A DNA stretch of 62,370 nt, taken from NCBI GenBank assembly GCA_019429125.1, contig JAHYJO010000006.1, positions 1 to 62,370 of the forward strand. Direction: 5' to 3'. The notes beneath the pieces were generated by a model. That model was not told the origin of the DNA and ran no database searches. It saw only the letters and a list, made by a program, of their open reading frames with translations. A program made the translations under genes and the position numbers. Shown here piece by piece: positions 6,487 through 37,535 of the stretch. How positions within the stretch are numbered: position 1 is the stretch's first letter; each line of letters begins with the position of its first letter. This stretch comes from Nanobdellati archaeon (lineage in GTDB: Archaea; EX4484-52; GLR71).

Positions 6487-7119
6487 TCAAATGGCTTGTT
6501 TATCTGCCTCAAAATCATCTCTTGAATTATAGATTGTCCTTTCTTTGACTATATGTAGACCTTTAATCATTGTATTGATTATATCAAGGGTAACCTTATC
6601 TCCTTTAGGTATTTGTACTGTTCTGAATTCATCAAATTGATATTTTTTTTCAAAACCATAAATTACATTAGGTGTAGGTTCTAAAACATTTCCTTTGATT
6701 CCGTCCCGGACTGCTGCAACAAGATATCGTCTCTCTATCCCTAAATCATCTTGATAATGTTTAAGGTCCATATTAATTGCTTCATCTAATTTTTCAGCAA
6801 CAATCTCATGGTAATCATCAATTGAAATAGTTTCGTCAGTCCTTATATTCTCCAAGATTTTGTTATAATTACAATTGACTTTATTTCTTATTTCATTAAA
6901 TATAATCTGTCCGAAATTAACATCATATTTTATAATGATACCTTTTTCATTTGCAGCAACAAAGACATCGACAGGAACAATCTGTTCAGATTCTTTCCCA
7001 TAAAGATTATGCCCTGCTAGATACTCGGTAGGAACATCTATTATTTTTGTATATCTAAATATTCCATCTGAATTTGCTTTATCTAGTATACACCCCAATA
7101 TTACATCAACATGACTCAT
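6487..7119 (-). CDS. Hypothetical protein
   Basis: 210-aa ORF divergent from trm5; no recognised motif. Confidence 0.6.
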   Translation of the reverse strand: MSHVDVILGCILDKANSDGIFRYTKIIDVPTEYLAGHNLYGKESEQIVPVDVFVAANEKGIIIKYDVNFGQIIFNEIRNKVNCNYNKILENIRTDETISIDDYHEIVAEKLDEAINMDLKHYQDDLGIERRYLVAAVRDGIKGNVLEPTPNVIYGFEKKYQFDEFRTVQIPKGDKVTLDIINTMIKGLHIVKERTIYNSRDDFEADKQAI

Positions 7120-7161: not shown

Positions 7162-7992
7162 ATGTGTTCTATGAACCTCAAAGAAGCGCTCAAAGGCAAA
7201 ATATCTGAAAAAGATGACCAATACATATATCGTGCTTTTGAGATAATAGGTGACATTGCAATAATCCAGGTGCCAGCAGAAATTGAACAGCACAAGATGC
7301 TGATGGCTGAGACACTCTGCGCACTCCACAAGAACATAAAAGTTGTCTTGCGAAAGATTGACGAAGTCTCAGGCAAATACCGTGTAGGTAAATATGAAAC
7401 CTTGATTGGCGACAGGACTTACACCATCTATTCAGAAAACAGCATCCGTATGAAAGCCGACCCGACAAAAGCATATTTCTCGTCAAAACTAGGAACTGAG
7501 CGCGAACGGATAACTGCTCAAGTAAAAGATGGTGAGACTATACTTTGCATGTTTGCCGGCATAGGTCCGTTTCCGTTGAATATTGCCAAATTACGCAATG
7601 TCACAATAAAATCAGTTGAGATAAATCCCGAGGCTACAGCCCTTTTTGCAGAAAGTCTAAAACTGAATAGGTTAAAAGGGAAAATATATATTTTTACAGG
7701 CGATATCAAAGATATAGTGCCTAACTTCTCTGAAAAGTTCGACCGCATCCTGATGCCTGCTCCAAAAGACGCACCAGAATTTTTAGACCTTGCTTTAAAA
7801 AAAGTAAAAAAGGGTGGAATCATAAACTATTATTCTTTTGTCCCTGCCGAAGACTATGATGACCTTGAAGTTGCAGTAAAAAAACAATGCGAAGATCTTG
7901 GACGAAACGTAAAAATCCTTGCGAAACGAAAATGTGGAAACATAGGTGTCTGCCAGTTCAGGGGCGCAATAGATATAAAAGTCCTTGACTGA
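7162..7992 (+). CDS. trm5: Trm5/Taw2-family tRNA G37 SAM-dependent transferase
   Basis: FEIIGDIAII, YFSSKLGTERERI, MFAGIGPF, EINP, FDRILMPAP. Confidence 0.88.
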   Translation: MCSMNLKEALKGKISEKDDQYIYRAFEIIGDIAIIQVPAEIEQHKMLMAETLCALHKNIKVVLRKIDEVSGKYRVGKYETLIGDRTYTIYSENSIRMKADPTKAYFSSKLGTERERITAQVKDGETILCMFAGIGPFPLNIAKLRNVTIKSVEINPEATALFAESLKLNRLKGKIYIFTGDIKDIVPNFSEKFDRILMPAPKDAPEFLDLALKKVKKGGIINYYSFVPAEDYDDLEVAVKKQCEDLGRNVKILAKRKCGNIGVCQFRGAIDIKVLD

Positions 7993-8004
7993 TATTAATG
8001 GTAT

Positions 8005-8281
8005 GGGACCTTAGGGTAGCTAACGATTGAAGGTATCATGCCTTCATTGTCTACATTGGTCATCCTTGTGGGCTGGGGGTCCTCAGACCTGTGTTCAAAA
8101 CGACCGGTGCTCCATGGGTGCGCAGTTGACATTCATGCTTTCCGCGCGAAGTCAAATGTTAATTATTCGACAAAACATTGCGCAAAGAAGTACTGGAACT
8201 ATATACTACCTGGGCGTAAGCGAGTGGTATAACTATTGTTCAACCTTATATATGGTTTTCGTGAAATTCACAGGGGTCCCA
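8005..8281 (+). tRNA. tRNA-Pro(GGG) with two non-canonical BHB introns: 8022-8056 (35 nt, D-loop 17/17a) and 8100-8267 (168 nt, T-loop 59/60)
   Basis: Exons 8005-8021, 8057-8099 and 8268-8281 join to GGGACCTTAGGGTAGCTTGGTCATCCTTGTGGGCT-GGG-GGTCCTCAGACCTGTGTTCAAATCACAGGGGTCCCA, an archaeal tRNA-Pro pattern; both junctions form 3-nt bulge/4-bp helix/3-nt bulge motifs (GTAG:CTAC and TTCA:TGAA). Confidence 0.92.
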
Positions 8282-8379
8282 TTTTTTGTATTTTTTATTA
8301 CTGTATATCTCGGGTTATGGTGCCTAACTGTTCCATCTAAAAATAATCCTATATATACCTCTTCTGATAATTATATACT

Positions 8380-11300
8380 ATGCACAGACACAGGTCTTTA
8401 ATTAGAAATAAAACTATCCTTTTGTCATCAGTTTTAATCATTATTTTATATTTGTCTTCTTTAGGTTTTGCAGTATCTGCAGGTCCTAAGATCTTGATTG
8501 TTGCAGATAGTGATGCAGATAATACAAATTATACATCTTATTATACTGATGCATTAGTTAGAAATAATTATAAATTTGGTACTGACTATGATATTAAATG
8601 GGTGTCTGGCTATGATAATGGTCCAACATATGAATTTATGTCAGATTATGATATCGTGATTTGGTTTACAGGGACAGATTTAGCAAACACTTTAACAAGC
8701 ACTGATATATCCAATATTCAAACATATCTTAATAATGGTGGTGCTCTTTTTATGAGTAGTACTTATGCTGCTTTTTTACAATATGAATCTTACCAAACAT
8801 TTTTTAATAACTATATGAATATTAAGAAGCCTACTGTGGGATGGTTAATAGAGTATGTTTCAAACTCCTATCCTTTAACTATTTATGGAACAAATCCAAT
8901 TTATACTAGTTCATTAAAATTTAATCATAGTGTATATTATCCTGCCAAAGTAATTTCTCGTGTAAATGCATCTAATGATTCTAAATCTTATAATTTATTT
9001 TATTTTAACAAAGATTCATCATTTAGTGATAATTCAAATCAAATATCTTCTTCAACATATAATACTATCGCAACAGCTTCAGACCTCCCGACACACAAGG
9101 TGGTATATTTTGGTTTGGGTTTTGAATCAATAATATCGCCATATAAGAGTATTAATAATGGGGGTGCAAATCCATCTGAAACAGATCATGCCATAGCCCG
9201 AGCAACTCTGATGAAAAACATAATAAATTACCTTTACACACCACTATCTTATATATCTTCTATATCTCCAGACCCGACAAAAGACAACATAACAATAACT
9301 GCAATATGCAGTGATAACGGACTTCTCTCAAACATAAATGCATCAGAATTTTATTTTAACACAGATAATTTAAGTGATGGCAACAACATCCAATTGACAG
9401 CGACAGATGGCACATTTAACACAAGTCTTGAAGAAGCAACAATAACAATTAACGCAACTGCCCCCCCCTATAATCTTGACGACGGCACACACACAGTATC
9501 AGTCCACTGTCAGGACAGCGCAGGTCACTGGAGTAAATATGATAACAAAACATTTATAATAAATCGCACAGTTCCGCAGACACCAGAAATAACTATAAAT
9601 AATGGTAATAACTATACAAATGATTATAATTTGAAGATCCACATCAGTGAAATTATAGGTTCTGGAACCTTTTCTATAGAACTATCCTGTAATGATATTG
9701 ATTTTTGGTCTGTGGCATTCTTCTATAATTATGTCTATATTAATTTAGATGATTATACATACGATGCTAACGGCTGCAATACAACAGATGGCCTAAAAAC
9801 AATCTATCTCCGTGCAAAAAGTGAGGCAGGTGTAGAGAACACAACCCATGCATCGGATTCAATAACTCTTGATACAATAAATCCTGAATTTATATCCGTT
9901 GATGTCTCAAACCCAGATAGCTATTACAAAGCAGGAGATAATATCTCATTGGACATTGATATGGGTGAAACGGACCTTATTCTTTATGCAAATACATCTA
10001 ATGTAGATGGCAATTTTACATTGCAACCTTTAAACGATGATGGTGACAATACATATAGCCTTAATATTTCTATGGTTTATGAGACAATGAAAGAAGGCAC
10101 AAAGACAATCAATCTCAAAGCAGAAGACCTCGCAGGCAACAGCCCTGGATGGTATAACTCTCTTCTTGTCACAATTGACAAAACCAAACCAAACATACCA
10201 TCATATTTTGAAAACAATGACGGTTACACAAACGACATGACACCTGAAATGGCTTTTAAACCACTAACCACAAACACTCCCGATTACATCTCATTTTCAT
10301 GTGATAATGATACATTTGATTCCTGGCTACCTTTTTCAAGCACAAGCAGTAACAGTTACAACAATTTCAACATAACAAACACTACATACGGTTGCTCACC
10401 AACAGATGGCGAAAGGACAATCTACATCCGTTCAAAAGACATTGCTGGAAACATAAACACCTCATTATCATATACAATAATTTATGACAGTGTCTTGCCC
10501 GAAATAGATAATCTTTTACCTTCTAATAAATCTAACATAACCCATAATACACAATTTTATGTAAATGTTTCAGATGACAGGTATTTATTCGAGGGGTACT
10601 ATGAGTCGACAGGTGATTCTATATTCATCCCTGTTATCTCACAAGGATTAACTTATGCAAATTACAGTTTTAAACCAACATGGTATGAAGATGATGGCAA
10701 CAAAAACATAATATTCCGTATTTATGATATGGCTGGAAATATATTACAATCTCTATATTCATACATGGTTGATAGCACAGCTCCAGAAACAGAAGATAAT
10801 TACACCTCATCTGATTGGGTAGGTTCCGACCAGCAAGTGTCATTAGACTGCACAGACTCCCAAAGCTATTGCAACACTACCTATTATTGTATATCTGAAA
10901 CTTCAGTTGGTGGATGTGAGCCAGAAAGCATAGGGAATAATGTTGATGTAGGTTGCACAATTGGCCATTCCTGTATAAAAATAATTTATTACTATTCTAT
11001 TGATAATTCAGGAAATGTAGAATCAATAGACTCAACAGAACAAATAAAAATTGATAAGACTCCACCAATAATAACTGTAACTAATCCGAAATCAGGAAAG
11101 ACTTATGCATCAACAGTTGACATATTTACAGATATAATAGATAGTGATAACGGAACAATATCATACGCAGACTACATAATCTACAATTCATCACAAGTAA
11201 ATATTGCAAACGGAAGTTTAAACAGCACAGACGGCTGGGTTGCTGAGTGGAACAGTTCTGATTATACAACAGGAACTTTTAATCTTACAATATTTGCAAA

Positions 11301-14300
11301 CGATTCATTGGGAAACAACATAACATACTCGCACCAATTCTCAATAGATAATGATTTACCTTCTGCAATTATATTTTACCCAAACGAGATTTACACAAAT
11401 GCAACATCCATAACTCTTAATCTGAATGCTCAGAAAGATACAGGTAATATTGACAACTGCTCTTACAACATTTACAATTCAAGTGGTATTCAGAACAATT
11501 CTGAAAAGATAGCTGTTGCCAGCCAAGAATGTATATTTGACAATTCTGTCGACATTTCCTCATGGGCTGATGGCAATTACAGCATAACTTTCACAGCAAT
11601 TGATTTATTATCAAATCAAGCTAACGACGTATCATGGTTCTATAAAGATAGAATAAAACCCGATGTCCATATCAACACACAGTTGAACAACACATGGAAT
11701 AAAGGACTGGTCAGCATAAACTATAATGCAACAGATGAAATGCAGATTTCTGCCTGCAAGACAAGATTCAAGAAGAACAGCACCACGCCATGGAGTAGTT
11801 ATACATCAATAGCTTGTGGTAATGAAAAGACATATCATTTTGATACGATACAATGCAGTGATACTTCTTCCAATGAATGCCTAATCGAATTTTATGCCGA
11901 AGATTCAGCAGGTAACACAAACAATTCACAAGTATTGTATCTAAATATAGATAATAGCCCGCCCCAAGTATCATTCACCTCTCCCCCTGCAACCTCCTGG
12001 TTCAATTCAAATTTTACAGTAGTTCATAATGAGACAGACCCTCAAGGTATGAATTGTTCATATAAAATAACAGGATCATCATCATCAGGCTGGAAGACCT
12101 TGACCTGCAGCCAAAACATATCAGTTAATATAAGTTCCTACTGCAACATCTCAGGCACAGCATGCATAGTCTACATAAACTCAACAAACAATGCAGGTAC
12201 TACTATTGAGACGTCCCGCACTTTCTACACCGACTTTGATGCACCTCAATTATCAGGTTTGACACACACCCCTCATGTTGCAAAAGATGGCACTGAAATC
12301 TACTTCAATGCAACTATATCAGACACTAACAGACCGATTGGTTCAGTAATTGCCTACATATTGAACACGACAGGTGAAGTGGTCTCTCAGATTCAGATGA
12401 CACAGATTAATCCAACATCAAAATATAATGGAACCTACATTGTAACAGGTTCAGAAACAGGAACATTTACAATCAACATAACTGCAAACGACACATTGGG
12501 AAACTTAGCTTATGACAACACAATAACCTTTCTTGTAAAGAACACACCACCAACTGCATCAGCATACAATCTGTCAGTTGATATTGATTCTAATTATGGA
12601 GACCGACGAATCCTCACAGGAGATCAAGTCACATTCTCTGTCAACCTATCCGATTCGATAGGTGTAGATTCGGCAATAATGACACTGAAACAATCTGGTT
12701 ATGATGGAGTTAACTATACGCTCACCCCTGAAAGTTATATTTTCACCTCTGATATCTGGTCGACAACAATAACTGACACAGCTAACAGAACAAATTACAG
12801 CATATACAATCTATATGTAAATGACACATTAGGGAACACAAAAATAATATCTCCGGAAACAATAAACCTTAATTTCATCTCAGTTGTACCACAGACCCAA
12901 ATAATTTTGGATTCATTAAGTAACACAACTATTGCAGAGACCACCGTACTCTTCAACCTAACTGTAAATTTCAACAAGACCATGTCTGACACAACATTTA
13001 CCGTATACATTCCTCCAAACACAAAGACCTCAAATACTTTAGTTCCTGCATACACAAATTCAACACCCTATCAGTGTATAGTTCCTGTAGGTACTTGCGC
13101 ACTAGAACCAACTTTTGACACAGCCAACAACACTATTTCAATAACTCTGAACCTGACGGGACCTGCAACAGAAGTTTCATTGATAACACAAAATATAAAA
13201 TCCAACGTTGAGTCAATAGACAAGGTCTACAACTGGCAAGTGATTTATGACTCGGTTGATTACGGAACCTCATCAAAGATAATAACACCTAACCTTAACA
13301 TAACATCAGTTAACTGTGACAATTCCTATCCTTGCCGCATCAATCAGAACACATCATTTAACATTTCAGTAAATGTCACAAATGAGTATGATATAATAAA
13401 CCACACAGGGAACTTTTACAATCTCTCAATCATCTATTCAATAGATGGAACTGACCAAACTATAAATCTAAACGACATATTCTCTGGCAATTCAAAGAAT
13501 ACAACCTTTTATGACTTGATTGAAGAACCAGGCACTTACAGTTTCACAATCTATGCAACAGACAACATTTCATCCTCATATTCAATAGATGAGACTTACA
13601 GCATCGAGATTGTAGACACTATGGCTCCAACATTTGTATCTGTGTATAGTTTTACAGGCAACATAATCTATCTTAATAAAACAAAGACTATGTATTATAA
13701 CCTAAAAGATAATGTGGGTATTGATACCGTTTGGGCAACAGTCTCCATGCCAGATTTATCAAAATCAAACATAACTATGGAATTTACAAGTGGAACACCA
13801 AAAGAAGGTCAATGGCAGTTAGACTATAATGAAACATCTCAATACGGTATCTATAATATCACTACAATATATGTAAATGACACAGAAAATAACACCCTAA
13901 CATACCTATCAGATTATACATTTGAAGTCAGGGATATGGATATTTCAATCTCATTGAATACGACATCATTGTCTGTTGAAGAAACCTTGCAGATAAATGT
14001 AACGATTGAAAATAACATATCTTCAATCGGATCAGTGTTAGCAAACATAACAAAACCGCGAGGTGCAATTGAACAGGTCACACTATCATTTATCAATATT
14101 TCAGACACTAACATAACATACTATTCAGGTACATATTCAAACATAACCCAATCAGATAATTACACAATTGAAGTTATTGTGTCTGCTGGTGGCGACATGT
14201 CTGAGACATCATCATTTTTTGCAGAGTACGGCACAGTAAATATAGTTTCTGCAATTGGATTAAACAACACTCTTATGATTCCTGTAGATAAGATCTATAA

Positions 14301-16953
14301 CCACAGCTGGTACATATACCCAGTCAAAGGTGACTTAGTAAATGTCAATGCAACTATGCATATAACAGATGAAACCTTATTGAACTTTTCAGTTTCAGAG
14401 ATTATCCTCAAACAGTTAGGGAATATATCTTATGAGACTTATAAGGGTGGTTATCTAATATCCTGGGAACTCAACACGACACAGATTGGACTATCAGATA
14501 TTGATGTAACTGTGTCTTCAACTTATTCAACAAACTTAACCTCAACAGAAATCAATGTAACTGTTGAAGATATAGAATACCCAGTTTTAGGAAATTATTC
14601 ATCTTATTCGATTGTAAATTTAAATGATATCCTTGCAATAACAGTTGATGCGCAAGACAACACTTTTGTAAAATCTGTAATAGTTGAAGTGACAGACCCA
14701 AACCATACAAAGACAAACGTGACTGCACAAATATCTGATATTGGTGAATACACAGCCATTTTTGAAAATACGACATATCTAGGTAATTATTCTTATGATG
14801 TTTATGTTTCAGATATATCAGACAATAATGTAACTTCGGTAAATTCTAAAGCATTCAATGTGACAGACATTTATCATATAGATATAGTGCCGAACTATGT
14901 AGTCTACAACAAAGGTGAAACCATAGATATCTATGTAATTGTCTATGATATAAACAATCACAGTGTATCTTCTTTCAACCTATCTTTAGATTTAGTAAAA
15001 GGTGATACTGTATTGCTTGTAAACAATACGATAAATTCTTCTGCACAATATAAAATTTTAACATCAGATCTTCCAACAGAATTGGACAAAGATAAATTTT
15101 CATTATATACATTTAATGCAAATGTCTCAAAAGATGGAAATTTAGGAAACATTTCATCAAGTGTAAATGTGACAAACCATTTGGTTACACGTTTTATAGA
15201 TTTATCTCCTGGTCAATATTATTCGTCCAGTTCAAAAGTGCCTGTGACAATTAGTGTAACAAACATACGTGGTGAAGAAACACAGGAATCGATTGTTTCA
15301 GTTGCATGTACTGGTTGTTTGCCAGAGAATGAGATAGATATTAAATCTTTAACAAAAATATCAGCTAATACCTATGTGAGTTTAGAAAATTTTATTGCAC
15401 CCTCATCGGAGAAAAATTTCTATTTAGATATTCTTGCAGTAGATATATATAAAAATGGTGATACTGATGCTAAGCCAACATCTATATTGCTCACGACTGA
15501 TTCATATTTTAATACTCAAAATAATGCAGAAGGTGCAGGTGGCGTTTCATCTGCAATATCTGATGTTCAAAATTTCATACAGAATCAGCTTGACAAAGTA
15601 TTCCAGATACCCACAGATGACTTTGTATTTACCTCAGATACAAAAATAAACATTATAACTGGCGAGACAGCAGAATCTCTTACCTCAATAGAGAATATAG
15701 GTGATACAGGTTTACACCTTATAGTTGATTACAACCTTGACTGTTGCACAGTTGACATGCTTGACAAGTTCACTCTTGAATTAAACGAGCGCCGTTCAAT
15801 CCCAATAACTATATCATCCAACCTTTCAAAAATTCCAGGCCGATATAAATTAGATATTGGCATAATGTCTGAAAACATCTCAAAAGAATATACAATAATA
15901 GTCAATCTTATACAGAATACATTAATAGTGCAACTGGATTCCTACAAACAAGATTATGTCCGGCTTAGGAATTTGATAGATGACCTTAATTTCTTAGGTA
16001 TTGATACCTCTTTATATGAAGAGTCATTACGATTCTCAAAAGATTTAATAGCAGACGCTCAAAAAGCAATAGATTCAAATGATATTGAAGAATTAGGTTC
16101 AATAAATACTAAGCTTGACAAAGGGTTAGGAAATCTTGACCGAGAACTTGCCGACAAAGAAAGTTTAAAATGGATTCTTGAAAATAAATATAGTATTGCA
16201 GGAACTGTAATAACTCTCTTGATATTGATATACTTATTGCAAGGATATTTTGTACCTTTCATATCTTTAACTCACGAGCTTAAAGAATTACACAAAAAAG
16301 AATCAAATCTTTCCTCTGAAGAAAAAGCAACAGAAAAAGAATATTTCACCCGTGTTATTGATAAACCGACCTTCAACAAGATAATGACTGAAAAACACAA
16401 AGCCCTTATTGATGCAAGAACTCACATAACACACCTGTCTGTATTGCGGTCACGTCTTATCCACGGTCATGCAATCTATTCAGATGAGATTAACAATGAT
16501 AAAATAATCAATGCTGCAACAAAAAAGAAATTACTCAAACATTTCAATAAAGAGTCATCTATTGTGCCTAAAAATGTAATATCTATGATCTCTGATTTAA
16601 AGAACAATGTAAATTTTGCGCCTAAAAAGTTAGTTTTAAATAATACTGGTTTGGGCACACAATTACAGAATCCTGCAATGTCTGAGAATCTAAAAAAGAT
16701 AAAGGCTGAAATACTGTCAGGTCCATTAGATGATATTGTGTCCGTTGATGTTTCAGAGTCAACAGAAATTCCTGACATGAAATCTTCTGAACCTCTCAAA
16801 TTACCAGAGACTCAAAAACAAGAATCATCTTTAACTCCTGATTTAGACACTGAAGCTGTCCCAGTCTCTGACATATCAGAAGATGCAATCCTGACAGATG
16901 ACTCCGAATTCAAGCGCCTTATGGCAAAACTGAAAAAAGACATGGCTGATTAA
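8380..16953 (+). CDS. Giant (2857 aa) cell-surface glycoprotein: signal peptide, GATase-like alpha/beta domain, many Ig-like domains, coiled coil, TM helix, cytoplasmic tail
   Basis: Sec-type signal; YDIVIWFTG..YLNNGGALF; repeated D.AGN / D.T.P Ig-like boundaries; dense N-x-S/T sequons; TM IAGTVITLLILIYLL. Confidence 0.9.
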   Translation: MHRHRSLIRNKTILLSSVLIIILYLSSLGFAVSAGPKILIVADSDADNTNYTSYYTDALVRNNYKFGTDYDIKWVSGYDNGPTYEFMSDYDIVIWFTGTDLANTLTSTDISNIQTYLNNGGALFMSSTYAAFLQYESYQTFFNNYMNIKKPTVGWLIEYVSNSYPLTIYGTNPIYTSSLKFNHSVYYPAKVISRVNASNDSKSYNLFYFNKDSSFSDNSNQISSSTYNTIATASDLPTHKVVYFGLGFESIISPYKSINNGGANPSETDHAIARATLMKNIINYLYTPLSYISSISPDPTKDNITITAICSDNGLLSNINASEFYFNTDNLSDGNNIQLTATDGTFNTSLEEATITINATAPPYNLDDGTHTVSVHCQDSAGHWSKYDNKTFIINRTVPQTPEITINNGNNYTNDYNLKIHISEIIGSGTFSIELSCNDIDFWSVAFFYNYVYINLDDYTYDANGCNTTDGLKTIYLRAKSEAGVENTTHASDSITLDTINPEFISVDVSNPDSYYKAGDNISLDIDMGETDLILYANTSNVDGNFTLQPLNDDGDNTYSLNISMVYETMKEGTKTINLKAEDLAGNSPGWYNSLLVTIDKTKPNIPSYFENNDGYTNDMTPEMAFKPLTTNTPDYISFSCDNDTFDSWLPFSSTSSNSYNNFNITNTTYGCSPTDGERTIYIRSKDIAGNINTSLSYTIIYDSVLPEIDNLLPSNKSNITHNTQFYVNVSDDRYLFEGYYESTGDSIFIPVISQGLTYANYSFKPTWYEDDGNKNIIFRIYDMAGNILQSLYSYMVDSTAPETEDNYTSSDWVGSDQQVSLDCTDSQSYCNTTYYCISETSVGGCEPESIGNNVDVGCTIGHSCIKIIYYYSIDNSGNVESIDSTEQIKIDKTPPIITVTNPKSGKTYASTVDIFTDIIDSDNGTISYADYIIYNSSQVNIANGSLNSTDGWVAEWNSSDYTTGTFNLTIFANDSLGNNITYSHQFSIDNDLPSAIIFYPNEIYTNATSITLNLNAQKDTGNIDNCSYNIYNSSGIQNNSEKIAVASQECIFDNSVDISSWADGNYSITFTAIDLLSNQANDVSWFYKDRIKPDVHINTQLNNTWNKGLVSINYNATDEMQISACKTRFKKNSTTPWSSYTSIACGNEKTYHFDTIQCSDTSSNECLIEFYAEDSAGNTNNSQVLYLNIDNSPPQVSFTSPPATSWFNSNFTVVHNETDPQGMNCSYKITGSSSSGWKTLTCSQNISVNISSYCNISGTACIVYINSTNNAGTTIETSRTFYTDFDAPQLSGLTHTPHVAKDGTEIYFNATISDTNRPIGSVIAYILNTTGEVVSQIQMTQINPTSKYNGTYIVTGSETGTFTINITANDTLGNLAYDNTITFLVKNTPPTASAYNLSVDIDSNYGDRRILTGDQVTFSVNLSDSIGVDSAIMTLKQSGYDGVNYTLTPESYIFTSDIWSTTITDTANRTNYSIYNLYVNDTLGNTKIISPETINLNFISVVPQTQIILDSLSNTTIAETTVLFNLTVNFNKTMSDTTFTVYIPPNTKTSNTLVPAYTNSTPYQCIVPVGTCALEPTFDTANNTISITLNLTGPATEVSLITQNIKSNVESIDKVYNWQVIYDSVDYGTSSKIITPNLNITSVNCDNSYPCRINQNTSFNISVNVTNEYDIINHTGNFYNLSIIYSIDGTDQTINLNDIFSGNSKNTTFYDLIEEPGTYSFTIYATDNISSSYSIDETYSIEIVDTMAPTFVSVYSFTGNIIYLNKTKTMYYNLKDNVGIDTVWATVSMPDLSKSNITMEFTSGTPKEGQWQLDYNETSQYGIYNITTIYVNDTENNTLTYLSDYTFEVRDMDISISLNTTSLSVEETLQINVTIENNISSIGSVLANITKPRGAIEQVTLSFINISDTNITYYSGTYSNITQSDNYTIEVIVSAGGDMSETSSFFAEYGTVNIVSAIGLNNTLMIPVDKIYNHSWYIYPVKGDLVNVNATMHITDETLLNFSVSEIILKQLGNISYETYKGGYLISWELNTTQIGLSDIDVTVSSTYSTNLTSTEINVTVEDIEYPVLGNYSSYSIVNLNDILAITVDAQDNTFVKSVIVEVTDPNHTKTNVTAQISDIGEYTAIFENTTYLGNYSYDVYVSDISDNNVTSVNSKAFNVTDIYHIDIVPNYVVYNKGETIDIYVIVYDINNHSVSSFNLSLDLVKGDTVLLVNNTINSSAQYKILTSDLPTELDKDKFSLYTFNANVSKDGNLGNISSSVNVTNHLVTRFIDLSPGQYYSSSSKVPVTISVTNIRGEETQESIVSVACTGCLPENEIDIKSLTKISANTYVSLENFIAPSSEKNFYLDILAVDIYKNGDTDAKPTSILLTTDSYFNTQNNAEGAGGVSSAISDVQNFIQNQLDKVFQIPTDDFVFTSDTKINIITGETAESLTSIENIGDTGLHLIVDYNLDCCTVDMLDKFTLELNERRSIPITISSNLSKIPGRYKLDIGIMSENISKEYTIIVNLIQNTLIVQLDSYKQDYVRLRNLIDDLNFLGIDTSLYEESLRFSKDLIADAQKAIDSNDIEELGSINTKLDKGLGNLDRELADKESLKWILENKYSIAGTVITLLILIYLLQGYFVPFISLTHELKELHKKESNLSSEEKATEKEYFTRVIDKPTFNKIMTEKHKALIDARTHITHLSVLRSRLIHGHAIYSDEINNDKIINAATKKKLLKHFNKESSIVPKNVISMISDLKNNVNFAPKKLVLNNTGLGTQLQNPAMSENLKKIKAEILSGPLDDIVSVDVSESTEIPDMKSSEPLKLPETQKQESSLTPDLDTEAVPVSDISEDAILTDDSEFKRLMAKLKKDMAD

Positions 16954-37247: not shown

Positions 37248-37339
37248 AATATAAATGATATGAATAATAATAAAAACATTTGTAATTTTAACATAAATAA
37301 GATTTATATTTAAATCTCATCTAATAAAAATAAACCAAT

Positions 37340-37411
37340 GGGCTGGTAGTTCAGTGGTAGAATGCCTGCTCGGCATGTAGGAGGCCGCGAGTTCGAGTCT
37401 CGCCCAGTCCA
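37340..37411 (+). tRNA. tRNA-Ala(GGC)
   Basis: Full cloverleaf: GGGCTGG/CCAGTCC acceptor with G3:U70, CCTGC-TCGGCAT-GTAGG anticodon arm, GCGAG-TTCGAGT-CTCGC T arm; no encoded CCA. Confidence 0.93.
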
Positions 37412-37437
37412 TCAAGCGATGCTCCCTTGAGGTGCAC

Positions 37438-37474
37438 ATGACATTCGGCTCAAAAGAAAAAGAGCCGAAGTCAT
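37438..37474 (+). terminator. Stable hairpin downstream of tRNA-Ala
   Basis: ATGAC-a-TTCGGCTC / GAGCCGAA-GTCAT with an A-rich loop. Confidence 0.45.
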
Positions 37475-37535
37475 TTAGTTATCTGATAATCCTAAACATC
37501 ATCAATTTATATCTTTTATCTGCGCAATCAACATT

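Follow-up and report, generated by a model that had tools for sequence, protein, structure and literature searches.

The gene described here is a tRNA-Pro(GGG) gene at positions 8005 to 8281 of contig JAHYJO010000006.1, from the assembly GCA_019429125.1 of a Nanobdellati archaeon (GTDB lineage Archaea; EX4484-52; GLR71). The 62,370 nucleotides (nt) of this contig that were analyzed are referred to as the window, and all features located in it below are on its forward strand. The T-loop of the gene is interrupted by an intron of 168 nt, and we consider it probable that this is a spliceable bulge-helix-bulge (BHB) intron made from a repeat that is mobile and structured as RNA. A sequence-only reading of the window had already proposed a structured T-loop intron as a candidate circular noncoding RNA (ncRNA) hosted by a tRNA. 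The presence of a second intron in the D-loop, the identity of the anticodon, and the recognition of the intron core as a dispersed repeat that also occurs outside tRNA genes go beyond that reading.

A tRNA-Pro(GGG) gene with two introns

The limits of the T-loop intron, 8100 to 8267, had been read correctly from the letters, and they turned out to be exact to the nucleotide when the pairing of the T-stem and the acceptor stem and the product of splicing in silico were considered. The acceptor strands GGGACCT (8005 to 8011) and GGGTCCC (8274 to 8280) pair and are followed by the discriminator A8281, the T-stem is formed by CTGTG (8089 to 8093) and CACAG (8269 to 8273), and the 7-nt T-loop, consisting of TTCAAA (8094 to 8099) and T8268, is split by the intron at tRNA position 59/60. 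A second intron of 35 nt was recognized in the D-loop (8022 to 8056). When both introns were cut out in silico, ARAGORN at its default threshold returned a 76-nt tRNA-Pro(GGG) with a normal D-arm (GGGT / AGCTTGGTC / ATCC), the anticodon loop CTGGGGG, and a 7-nt T-loop. In this gene model, exon 1 (8005 to 8021) holds the acceptor 5' strand, U8, A9, the D-stem strand GGGT, and AGCT of the D-loop. Exon 2 (8057 to 8099) holds the 3' part of the D-loop, the anticodon arm (GTGGG 8068 to 8072, loop CTGGGGG 8073 to 8079 with the anticodon GGG at 8075 to 8077, and TCCTC 8080 to 8084), the variable loop, the 5' strand of the T-stem, and TTCAAA of the T-loop. Exon 3 (8268 to 8281) holds T60, the 3' strands of the T-stem and acceptor stem, and the discriminator; CCA is not encoded.

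Because of its two introns, the gene is missed by standard finders. On the raw window, ARAGORN called a tRNA-Ala alone and nothing at 8005 to 8281, and a tRNA-Ala was likewise the sole match when Rfam was run over the window at gathering scores, with tRNA-Pro(GGG) not seen. Removal of the T-loop intron alone led ARAGORN, at a low threshold, to an odd call, a class-II-like tRNA-Thr(GGT) with an unusual intron, which resulted from the second intron still being present and was dropped in favor of Pro(GGG) once the D-loop intron had been recognized. A model with a CAT anticodon and a canonical intron was also dropped, as bases 8034 and 8038 differ among orthologues and are part of a hairpin. No further Pro(GGG) gene was found by ARAGORN in the 1.16-Mb, 93%-complete genome. 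In the orthologues from two congeners (G006 and G007), the exons are identical at 74 of 74 positions, the T-loop introns at 125 to 126 of 170, and the D-loop introns at 33 of 35.

Splice motifs and splicing machinery

The T-loop intron is framed by a canonical BHB motif (5' half 8094 to 8103, 3' half 8259 to 8268). The T-stem serves as the outer helix, TTCA (8094 to 8097) and TGAA (8262 to 8265) form a 4-bp central helix, CGA (8101 to 8103) and TCG (8259 to 8261) form the inner helix, and the helices are separated by the two 3-nt bulges AAA (8098 to 8100) and ATT (8266 to 8268). As a general rule, BHB introns are cut inside the bulges, and a cut after the second bulge base on each side falls exactly between 8099 and 8100 and between 8267 and 8268. 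Across 52 aligned homologues, which are described below, the central helix was paired in 94.6% of the cells and the inner helix in 89.5%. The BHB conformer of the window copy lies 2.4 kcal/mol above the minimum free energy (MFE) fold.

The D-loop intron is bounded by a central helix of GTAG (8016 to 8019) and CTAC (8051 to 8054), with the bulges CTA (8020 to 8022) and ATT (8055 to 8057), an inner helix (8023 to 8027 with 8046 to 8050), and a hairpin (8029 to 8045); an outer helix was not found for this motif. Its limits were read from the sequence, with the inner hairpin also present in the pre-tRNA fold, and they could equally be 8021 to 8055 because of a repeated T. Among orthologues, T8034 is changed to C, which turns a U.G pair into C-G, and A8038 is changed to G.

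The genome encodes one splicing endonuclease EndA, a 189-amino-acid open reading frame (ORF) on contig C19 (PF01974, 92.5 bits), and a ligase RtcB (564.9 bits). Short alpha4-type EndA with an extra loop has been reported for several DPANN lineages with heavily disrupted tRNA genes, and the accessible part of the same work takes the incomplete tRNA sets of those lineages to point to undetected disrupted genes (PMC5829648). The T-stem, the TTCA/TGAA helix with its two bulges, and the inner helix would offer both splice sites to EndA, after which RtcB would join the exons. The intron would thereby be set free and, as with other archaeal BHB introns, would probably be circularized.

A family of homologous T-loop introns

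A covariance model built from 10 introns (R1) was run on 42 genomes of the order, a sample identical to the one at phylum level, and matches were counted at an E value of at most 0.01. The window intron itself matched with 105.6 bits (E = 9.5e-21). Its own genome holds four copies, all at the same T-loop position; besides the copy in tRNA-Pro, these are in tRNA-Lys(CTT) (contig C6, 173 nt, 70% identical), tRNA-Ser(GGA) (contig C28, 102 nt), and tRNA-His(GTG) (contig C12, 103 nt). All seven other genomes of the genus carry matches, 2 to 11 in each. Further matches were found in a second genus of the family (g2; two matches), in a third genus (one weak match), and in three other families (weak matches); one genome of another family (G012 of f4) holds two T-loop introns with the P3 hairpin described below (46.2 and 31.1 bits).

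When the homologous inserts were cut out by coordinate, ARAGORN recognized a tRNA in 45 of 51 hits, representing 13 tRNA types (Pro GGG, Ser GGA, Leu TAA, Lys CTT and TTT, Glu TTC, His GTG, Gly TCC and CCC, Arg TCT and TCG, Gln TTG, and Thr CGT); three Pro genes were mistyped as Thr in this survey because of their second intron. Intron lengths range from 44 to 173 nt, and the forms of 44 to 45 nt look like internal deletions that keep the terminal helix P1. Pattern scans of viral and metagenome collections yielded no true member of the family, and a BLAST-level search of 19 genomes from other archaeal lineages returned only matches with E > 0.04. In viral contigs, a first pattern found five loci, all of them chance matches without the P3 hairpin, and a second pattern found none. 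In metagenome contigs, a T-loop-plus-hairpin pattern found nothing, and a P3/joiner pattern found 112 stretches; among the 80 of these that were listed, none matched the core model R2 (see below) at E of at most 0.001.

The conserved fold of the intron RNA

The architecture conserved among the homologues is a single long irregular hairpin (domain 1) with an optional module of two hairpins (domain 2). Domain 1 (8104 to 8196; 54.6 bits with R2) consists of P1 (8104 to 8111 with 8189 to 8196), P2 (8119 to 8124 with 8179 to 8184), P3 (8126 to 8130 with 8151 to 8155), a bulged A8131, P3b (8132 to 8138 with 8144 to 8150), and an A/U-rich joiner (8156 to 8178). Domain 2 (8198 to 8258) consists of a hairpin at 8203 to 8230, with a stem, a UGG/GAGU internal loop, and a GC-GUAA-GC cap, followed by a hairpin closed by AACC (8242 to 8245) and GGTT (8254 to 8257). 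All six helices listed in the sequence-only reading were found at their places and in the MFE fold. Those of domain 1 that form P1 (CCGGTGCT:AGTACTGG), P2 (TGCGCA:TGCGCA), and P3 (TTGAC:GTCAA) are all conserved among the homologues and show compensatory changes, and covariation is strong in P1, P2, and P3/P3b. The GNRA-capped hairpin and AACC:GGTT recur in three other aligned two-domain introns (two Pro orthologues and the Lys intron of the same genome) and in two free-standing repeats (L041 and L042). The helix ATGTT:AACAT (8156 to 8160 with 8174 to 8178), in contrast, is confined to the window copy and kept in no homologue, and the description of the RNA as multi-branched was overstated. Its higher G+C content was borne out, with 0.42 in the intron, compared to 0.34 in the window and 0.30 to 0.39 in the flanks.

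Evidence for the fold that is independent of the model came from a sequence-only MAFFT alignment of 36 cores, in which 88.6% of the cells pair, compared to 72.2% in shuffles and 38 to 49% with slid partners; 13 of 18 pairs were changed on both sides, with 123 such cells compared to 40.9 in shuffles. In the alignment of 52 hits fitted to the model, which leans toward that model, 91.6% of the cells were paired and 33 of 37 pairs were changed on both sides. Homologues and covariation, which the sequence-only reading had called for as checks, were both found, and the intron is a conserved structured RNA. G.U pairs are frequent, which speaks for selection acting on the RNA of the sense strand. The base sequence of P3, GAC-A-UUC / GAA-GUC, is conserved.

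The fold is not uniform across the family. The 5' strand of P1 can alternatively form a local hairpin (consensus GAGGGG-ACU-CCCUC; alignment columns 13 to 29, against columns 13 to 24 with 104 to 179 for the long-range pairing; 8101 to 8117 in the window). The long-range pairing, comprising P1 and the inner BHB helix, and the local hairpin are mutually exclusive, and both covary (91% and 93% paired in a 10-sequence alignment), a sign that the RNA may switch between conformations or pass through two life stages. P1 dominates in the window copy, where the local hairpin is degenerate, and some copies have two local hairpins in tandem. Among the introns, domain 2 was found only in those of Pro, in the Lys(CTT) intron of the same genome, and in a few others, and the 5' leader of tRNA-Ser(CGA) (contig C22) contains a related hairpin. 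Its internal loop has tandem G.A pairs in most copies and, by eye, is without the 3-nt bulge of a kink-turn.

The ORFs that overlap the intron (8038 to 8232, 8027 to 8401, and 7995 to 8132) gave no Pfam family at E of at most 0.1, in agreement with the view that no credible coding sequence is present. Rfam gave no family at E of at most 10 in 7900 to 8400, neither a small nucleolar RNA or sRNA family, as anticipated for an intron that is not of the box C/D type, nor a group I or II intron or a small ribozyme, which speaks against the suggestion of a ribozyme relic. Words resembling CUGA were seen, by eye, only in the BHB central helix of some copies or in the internal loop of domain 2. In five homologous loci, Rfam at E of at most 1 likewise found no intron or ribozyme family; what it returned was a 5S rRNA, a mis-ended tRNA, and a chance sub-threshold sRNA hit.

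Host-incongruent phylogeny and polymorphism at the tRNA-Pro locus

A maximum-likelihood tree was computed over 104 intron-only columns from 42 introns, which remained after 10 of the 52 hits had been set aside as partial, weak, or located outside tRNAs. This tree tracked neither host tRNA nor genome. Host-tRNA labels required 26 changes, compared to a mean of 27.2 in shuffles (81 of 300 shuffles had as few), and genome labels required 25 changes, compared to 28.3 (12 of 300 as few). Approximately unbiased (AU) tests rejected a single clade for the introns hosted by Lys(CTT) (p = 4e-34), Leu(TAA) (p = 1e-12), His(GTG) (p = 1e-7), and Glu(TTC) (p = 3e-6), and introns of different tRNAs within one genome appeared as starred sisters, for example those of His and Leu in G006.

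Public DNA contigs from four runs and three studies bridge the tRNA-Pro(GGG) locus in three forms; no RNA run was listed for this locus. Some of the contigs carry orthologues of the long intron. In others, 8103 to 8267 or 8097 to 8265 are replaced by 28 or 34 other letters that constitute short T-loop introns. In the third form, ...GGGTAGC runs directly into 8056 and the D-loop intron is absent (with loose ends at 8056 in X1 and X4); these junctions confirm the boundaries of the D-loop intron. Among the options that the sequence-only reading had left for the T-loop intron, that of a mobile intron is the one favored by the host-incongruent tree, by the polymorphism of this locus, and by an empty site at another.

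Copies of the core outside introns

The core model R2 was run on 10 genomes of the family, and the matches were assigned to classes from their coordinates. Of 79 matches, 44 were T-loop introns, 20 were full-length copies elsewhere, and 15 comprised only the P3 hairpin within other composite repeats; copy number ranged from 2 to 19 per genome within the genus. Of 23 non-intron copies inspected (19 full-length and 4 hairpin-only), some directly follow a tRNA 3' end, which is that of Ala(GGC) in three genomes, that of Lys(TTT) in two, and that of an intron-bearing tRNA in one case; others directly follow the stop codons of protein genes or lie in T-rich spacers.

The window itself holds one such free-standing copy (about 37413 to 37490; nhmmer E = 9e-6, R2 45.7 bits), which was detected with a profile of the core as the fifth copy in this genome, is not an intron, and consists of the local hairpin, the P3/P3b hairpin, and a tail. 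It lies directly 3' of tRNA-Ala(GGC) (37339 to 37413, by ARAGORN), and the same arrangement was found in G006 and G007. In G003, the orthologous site is empty, with about 78 nt missing between ...CCATTAA and ACATCATC.... A repeat of at most 2 to 3 nt, (C/T)AA, is present at this site and could be due to chance.

Runs of at least five T were found in 5 of 40 intron copies, compared to 15 of the 19 free-standing copies, for which the core plus 35 nt was considered, and 34% of random 102-nt windows of the genome, a comparison that is descriptive only since the copies are kin. The scarcity of such runs in the introns fits selection for read-through, or against premature termination, within tRNA genes.

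Parts of the element were also seen in other composites. One of them, about 180 nt long and closed by AAATCCAC/GTGGATTT, holds domain 2 and is present twice in G006 (L041 on contig C56 and L042 on contig C113). In G001 and G002, four loci (L113 to L116) share a near-identical 33-nt P3-type hairpin, identical in three of the four loci inspected, which has GGCTTCAGAAAGCC-type hairpins and a domain-2 hairpin in antisense orientation at its flanks. Upstream of tRNA-Ser(GGA) (L003, about 430 to 540, on contig C28 of the same genome as the window; L039, about 100 to 260, on contig C80 of G006), a tandem duplication covers a promoter-like region together with roughly the first 10 nt of the gene, and the upstream duplicate continues not into a tRNA body but into a domain-2-like AACC...GGTT hairpin on the opposite strand. 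In G006, a domain-2 GNRA hairpin lies about 100 nt farther upstream of this duplicate, also on the opposite strand.

Surroundings of the tRNA-Pro(GGG) gene

A candidate archaeal TATA box, TATAAAA (7974 to 7980), was recognized from the sequence some 25 nt ahead of the 5' end of the tRNA, and a TTTTTT run (8282 to 8287) right after the discriminator is a likely transcription stop. A scan for bacterial-type promoters (sigma-70) and terminators, which does not apply to archaea, gave nothing of use. The upstream neighbor on the same strand (7162 to 7992) encodes a tRNA methyltransferase of the Trm5/TYW2 family (Pfam E = 1e-41). Trm5 enzymes methylate G37, and position 37 of the adjoining tRNA-Pro(GGG) is a G. 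An ORF of 2857 amino acids (8380 to 16953), which begins about 100 nt downstream of the tRNA and has a bacterial Ig-like domain (Big_13, E = 3e-11) as its sole Pfam match, may encode a giant surface protein.

Alternative explanations for the intron family

The reading of the family as a mobile element that generates spliceable introns was weighed against four others. The family might instead be a functional tRNA-hosted ncRNA, expressed via tRNA promoters and tRNA processing (EndA for the introns, 3'-end processing for the trailers) and released as a probably circular RNA with a role in trans, such as that of a scaffold to which proteins bind through the conserved P3 hairpin, the U-rich joiner, or the domain-2 loop with its tandem G.A pairs. 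Compensatory changes conserve the fold well beyond what the BHB motif needs, the P3/P3b hairpin persists with an invariant base sequence in the non-intron copies, and copies cluster at tRNA genes, in T-loops, in 3' trailers, and in one 5' leader. A precedent exists in the archaeal tRNA-Trp introns, which, according to the available part of the report, are circularized box C/D RNAs (PMC12558985). We nevertheless regard a dedicated ncRNA as rather unlikely, because no guide-RNA boxes and no Rfam family were recognized, and the copy number varies nearly tenfold within one genus. In addition, relatives have exchanged the long intron for a short insert at the tRNA-Pro locus, and 44- to 45-nt deletion derivatives stand in other tRNAs, so that no single copy seems to be needed. 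Less probable still is a DNA-level transposable element, a nonautonomous derivative of IS200/IS605 or another insertion sequence (IS), whose hairpins would be read as single-stranded DNA, which would happen to be harmless in T-loops, and whose RNA structure would be incidental. Elements derived from IS200/IS605 typically lack terminal inverted repeats and target duplications, have hairpins near their ends, and insert at sites of the kind seen here. The discrete unit with its empty site, the hairpins near its ends without inverted repeats or a clear target duplication, and the insertion just 3' of short A-ending words (TTCAAA, TTTAA, CTAA, and ATTAA) would agree with such an origin, and the family does include genomes with TnpA(Y1) (2 of 10) and TnpB (3 of 10, two of them above the family cutoff). 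However, neither protein was found in the 93%-complete genome of the window, and their presence was not linked to copy number, as G003 with both has 2 copies and G004 with neither has 15. The many G.U pairs are specific to the sense strand, and R2 with its filters off found nothing in five IS loci of relatives, a weak negative given the short length of these loci, some of which are truncated by contig ends.

The two remaining explanations appear far more remote. A decayed, self-splicing group I-like relic that now relies on EndA would draw on the presence of several helices and on a general hypothesis by which group I introns gave rise to BHB introns (cited in PMC6125680, as far as its accessible text goes). 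The Rfam searches of the locus (E of at most 10) and of five homologous loci (E of at most 1) gave no intron or ribozyme match, the part of the architecture that is conserved forms a simple, extended hairpin about 100 nt long, and the archaeal group I introns in the accessible text of PMC6125680 are all in rRNA genes, so we consider such a relic very improbable. Still harder to credit is a disabled tRNA pseudogene or an assembly artifact. The silence of the tRNA finders could be taken in its favor, but the exons are perfectly conserved next to a diverged intron, the BHB motif is intact, independent genomes and public contigs of three studies share the same architecture, and no other Pro(GGG) gene was detected.

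Several observations weigh against the mobile-repeat reading that we prefer. The Ser(GGA) introns as one clade were not rejected by the AU test (p = 0.06), and the tree, computed from only 104 columns, has 19 weak branches among its 39 inner ones, with the tRNA groups having been picked after the tree was seen. Gene conversion between T-arms could mimic transposition. Reverse transcriptase, TnpA, and TnpB were searched for in the genome and none was found, and the filled and empty tRNA-Ala(GGC) sites, the latter a single example, show neither terminal inverted repeats nor a clear target duplication. As two mutually exclusive pairings both covary, a single-structure picture is incomplete. Against shuffled controls, which the sequence-only reading had named as a check, the intron alone folded no better (z = -1.16, 27 of 200 as good). 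The whole pre-tRNA did (z = -2.86, none of 200 as good), and what argues for an intron fold beyond chance is the comparison between homologues. Finally, the conserved base sequence of P3 and the survival of its hairpin outside introns could point to a cellular function rather than to selfishness.

A model for the spread of the family

As the comparison of its copies shows, the family has a core made up of the local hairpin, P2, and the P3/P3b hairpin with its bulged A, to which the second, two-hairpin domain is optional. It has been moved or copied repeatedly between the T-loops of different tRNA genes within the genus, and it also occurs as the discrete insertions of about 78 nt beside tRNA 3' ends and after the stop codons of protein genes. 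Copies may persist in tRNA genes because each brings along the intron half of a near-perfect BHB motif and avoids long T runs, so that the host tRNA would still be made. Candidate routes are ectopic recombination or gene conversion via the near-universal T-arm flanks, reverse splicing, or a transposase. In our view the element is primarily selfish or mobile, and selection acts on its RNA fold.

A more far-reaching version of this model is speculative, and we hold it only tentatively. The family could be an archaeal, endonuclease-spliced counterpart of introner elements, that is, a self-propagating structured RNA/DNA module that generates new tRNA introns when it lands in the universally conserved T-loop, completes the BHB motif with its own 3' end, and also seeds elements at gene 3' ends. 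The circles or trailer RNAs would then be tRNA-hosted RNAs of a new class, to which a dedicated protein binds via the invariant GAC-A-UUC/GAA-GUC hairpin.

Comparison with known systems

Parallels exist with miniature nonautonomous transposable elements and with introner-type elements, the latter of which create introns. The family resembles them in being a short, discrete, multicopy unit with presence/absence polymorphism whose insertion creates a spliceable intron. It differs in showing no inverted repeats or target duplication at the one empty site, in that no partner transposase was found, and in its predicted removal by a protein endonuclease pathway.

Among archaea, the closest parallel is found in the Thermoproteales, for which near-identical BHB introns across tRNA types, with similarity decoupled from tRNA phylogeny, have been described (Fujishima et al. 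2010, as related in the accessible parts of PMC4090602, PMC4033280, and 10.64898/2026.10.13.758758). In both cases, BHB introns occupy several tRNA types without congruence to the host, and the need for a BHB motif limits where copies persist. According to the same sources, in the portions available, the mechanism by which the Thermoproteales introns spread is unknown. The family described here differs in its DPANN lineage, in its single position (59/60), in its length (about 100 to 173 nt) with a covarying internal fold, and in the occurrence of its core as discrete insertions outside tRNA genes, which the accessible text on Thermoproteales does not mention. The tRNA-Trp box C/D intron is similarly long (about 100 nt) and structured, has a BHB motif, and is excised and circularized (PMC12558985, available part), but it lies at the canonical position 37/38 of a single tRNA and has C/D boxes and a guide function, whereas the present introns lack C/D boxes and an Rfam match and have many host tRNAs. 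From animals, the tRNA intronic circular RNAs (tricRNAs) offer a further parallel, in that tRNA splicing frees stable circular RNAs from BHB-like motifs; in the accessible part of that work (PMC4536317) they occur in eukaryotes, lie in the anticodon loop, and do not make up a mobile family, and their circularity stands against one that is only inferred here. Finally, the noncanonical and multiple introns of DPANN lineages with a loop-bearing alpha4-type EndA (PMC5829648) share with the present case the short single EndA, tRNAs invisible to finders, and introns in D- and T-loops; the accessible text of that study catalogues positions and enzyme types and contains no homologous structured intron family. 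The suggestion that the RNA might be undescribed was in keeping with our literature search, as no DPANN family confined to position 59/60, of 100 to 170 nt, with a covarying fold and a core shared with extragenic insertions, was found described in open-access papers or bioRxiv.

Implications for tRNA annotation and intron gain

With anticodon-loop introns allowed, ARAGORN found only 18 tRNAs in the 93%-complete genome. As the T-loop intron family explains only four of the missing tRNAs, other hidden interrupted tRNA genes are likely. The tRNA-Lys(CTT) gene (contig C6, about 6698 to 6937; L002, 1447 to 1700), which has a 5S rRNA gene about 310 nt upstream, is an example of another kind of error, since both ARAGORN and the Rfam tRNA model took the initial bases of its 173-nt intron for a T-arm and a 3' end, while the true 3' end lies after the intron. 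With finders missing such genes or ending them wrongly, the tRNA complements of such DPANN genomes are under-annotated.

The origin of archaeal tRNA introns is an open question. In the accessible part of a recent preprint on Asgard archaea (2026; 10.64898/2026.10.13.758758), no tested arrival route explains the data in general, and a donor-sequence test in particular fails to explain its introns in general. The family described here is young enough to be aligned, sits at one position, and has a covarying fold, with filled, replaced, and empty alleles in relatives and copies outside tRNA genes that could be either donors or products, and the direction and mechanism of intron gain are therefore testable in it. 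If the introner-like reading were true, the family would provide a living system for studying the long-unknown mechanism by which archaeal tRNA genes gain introns.

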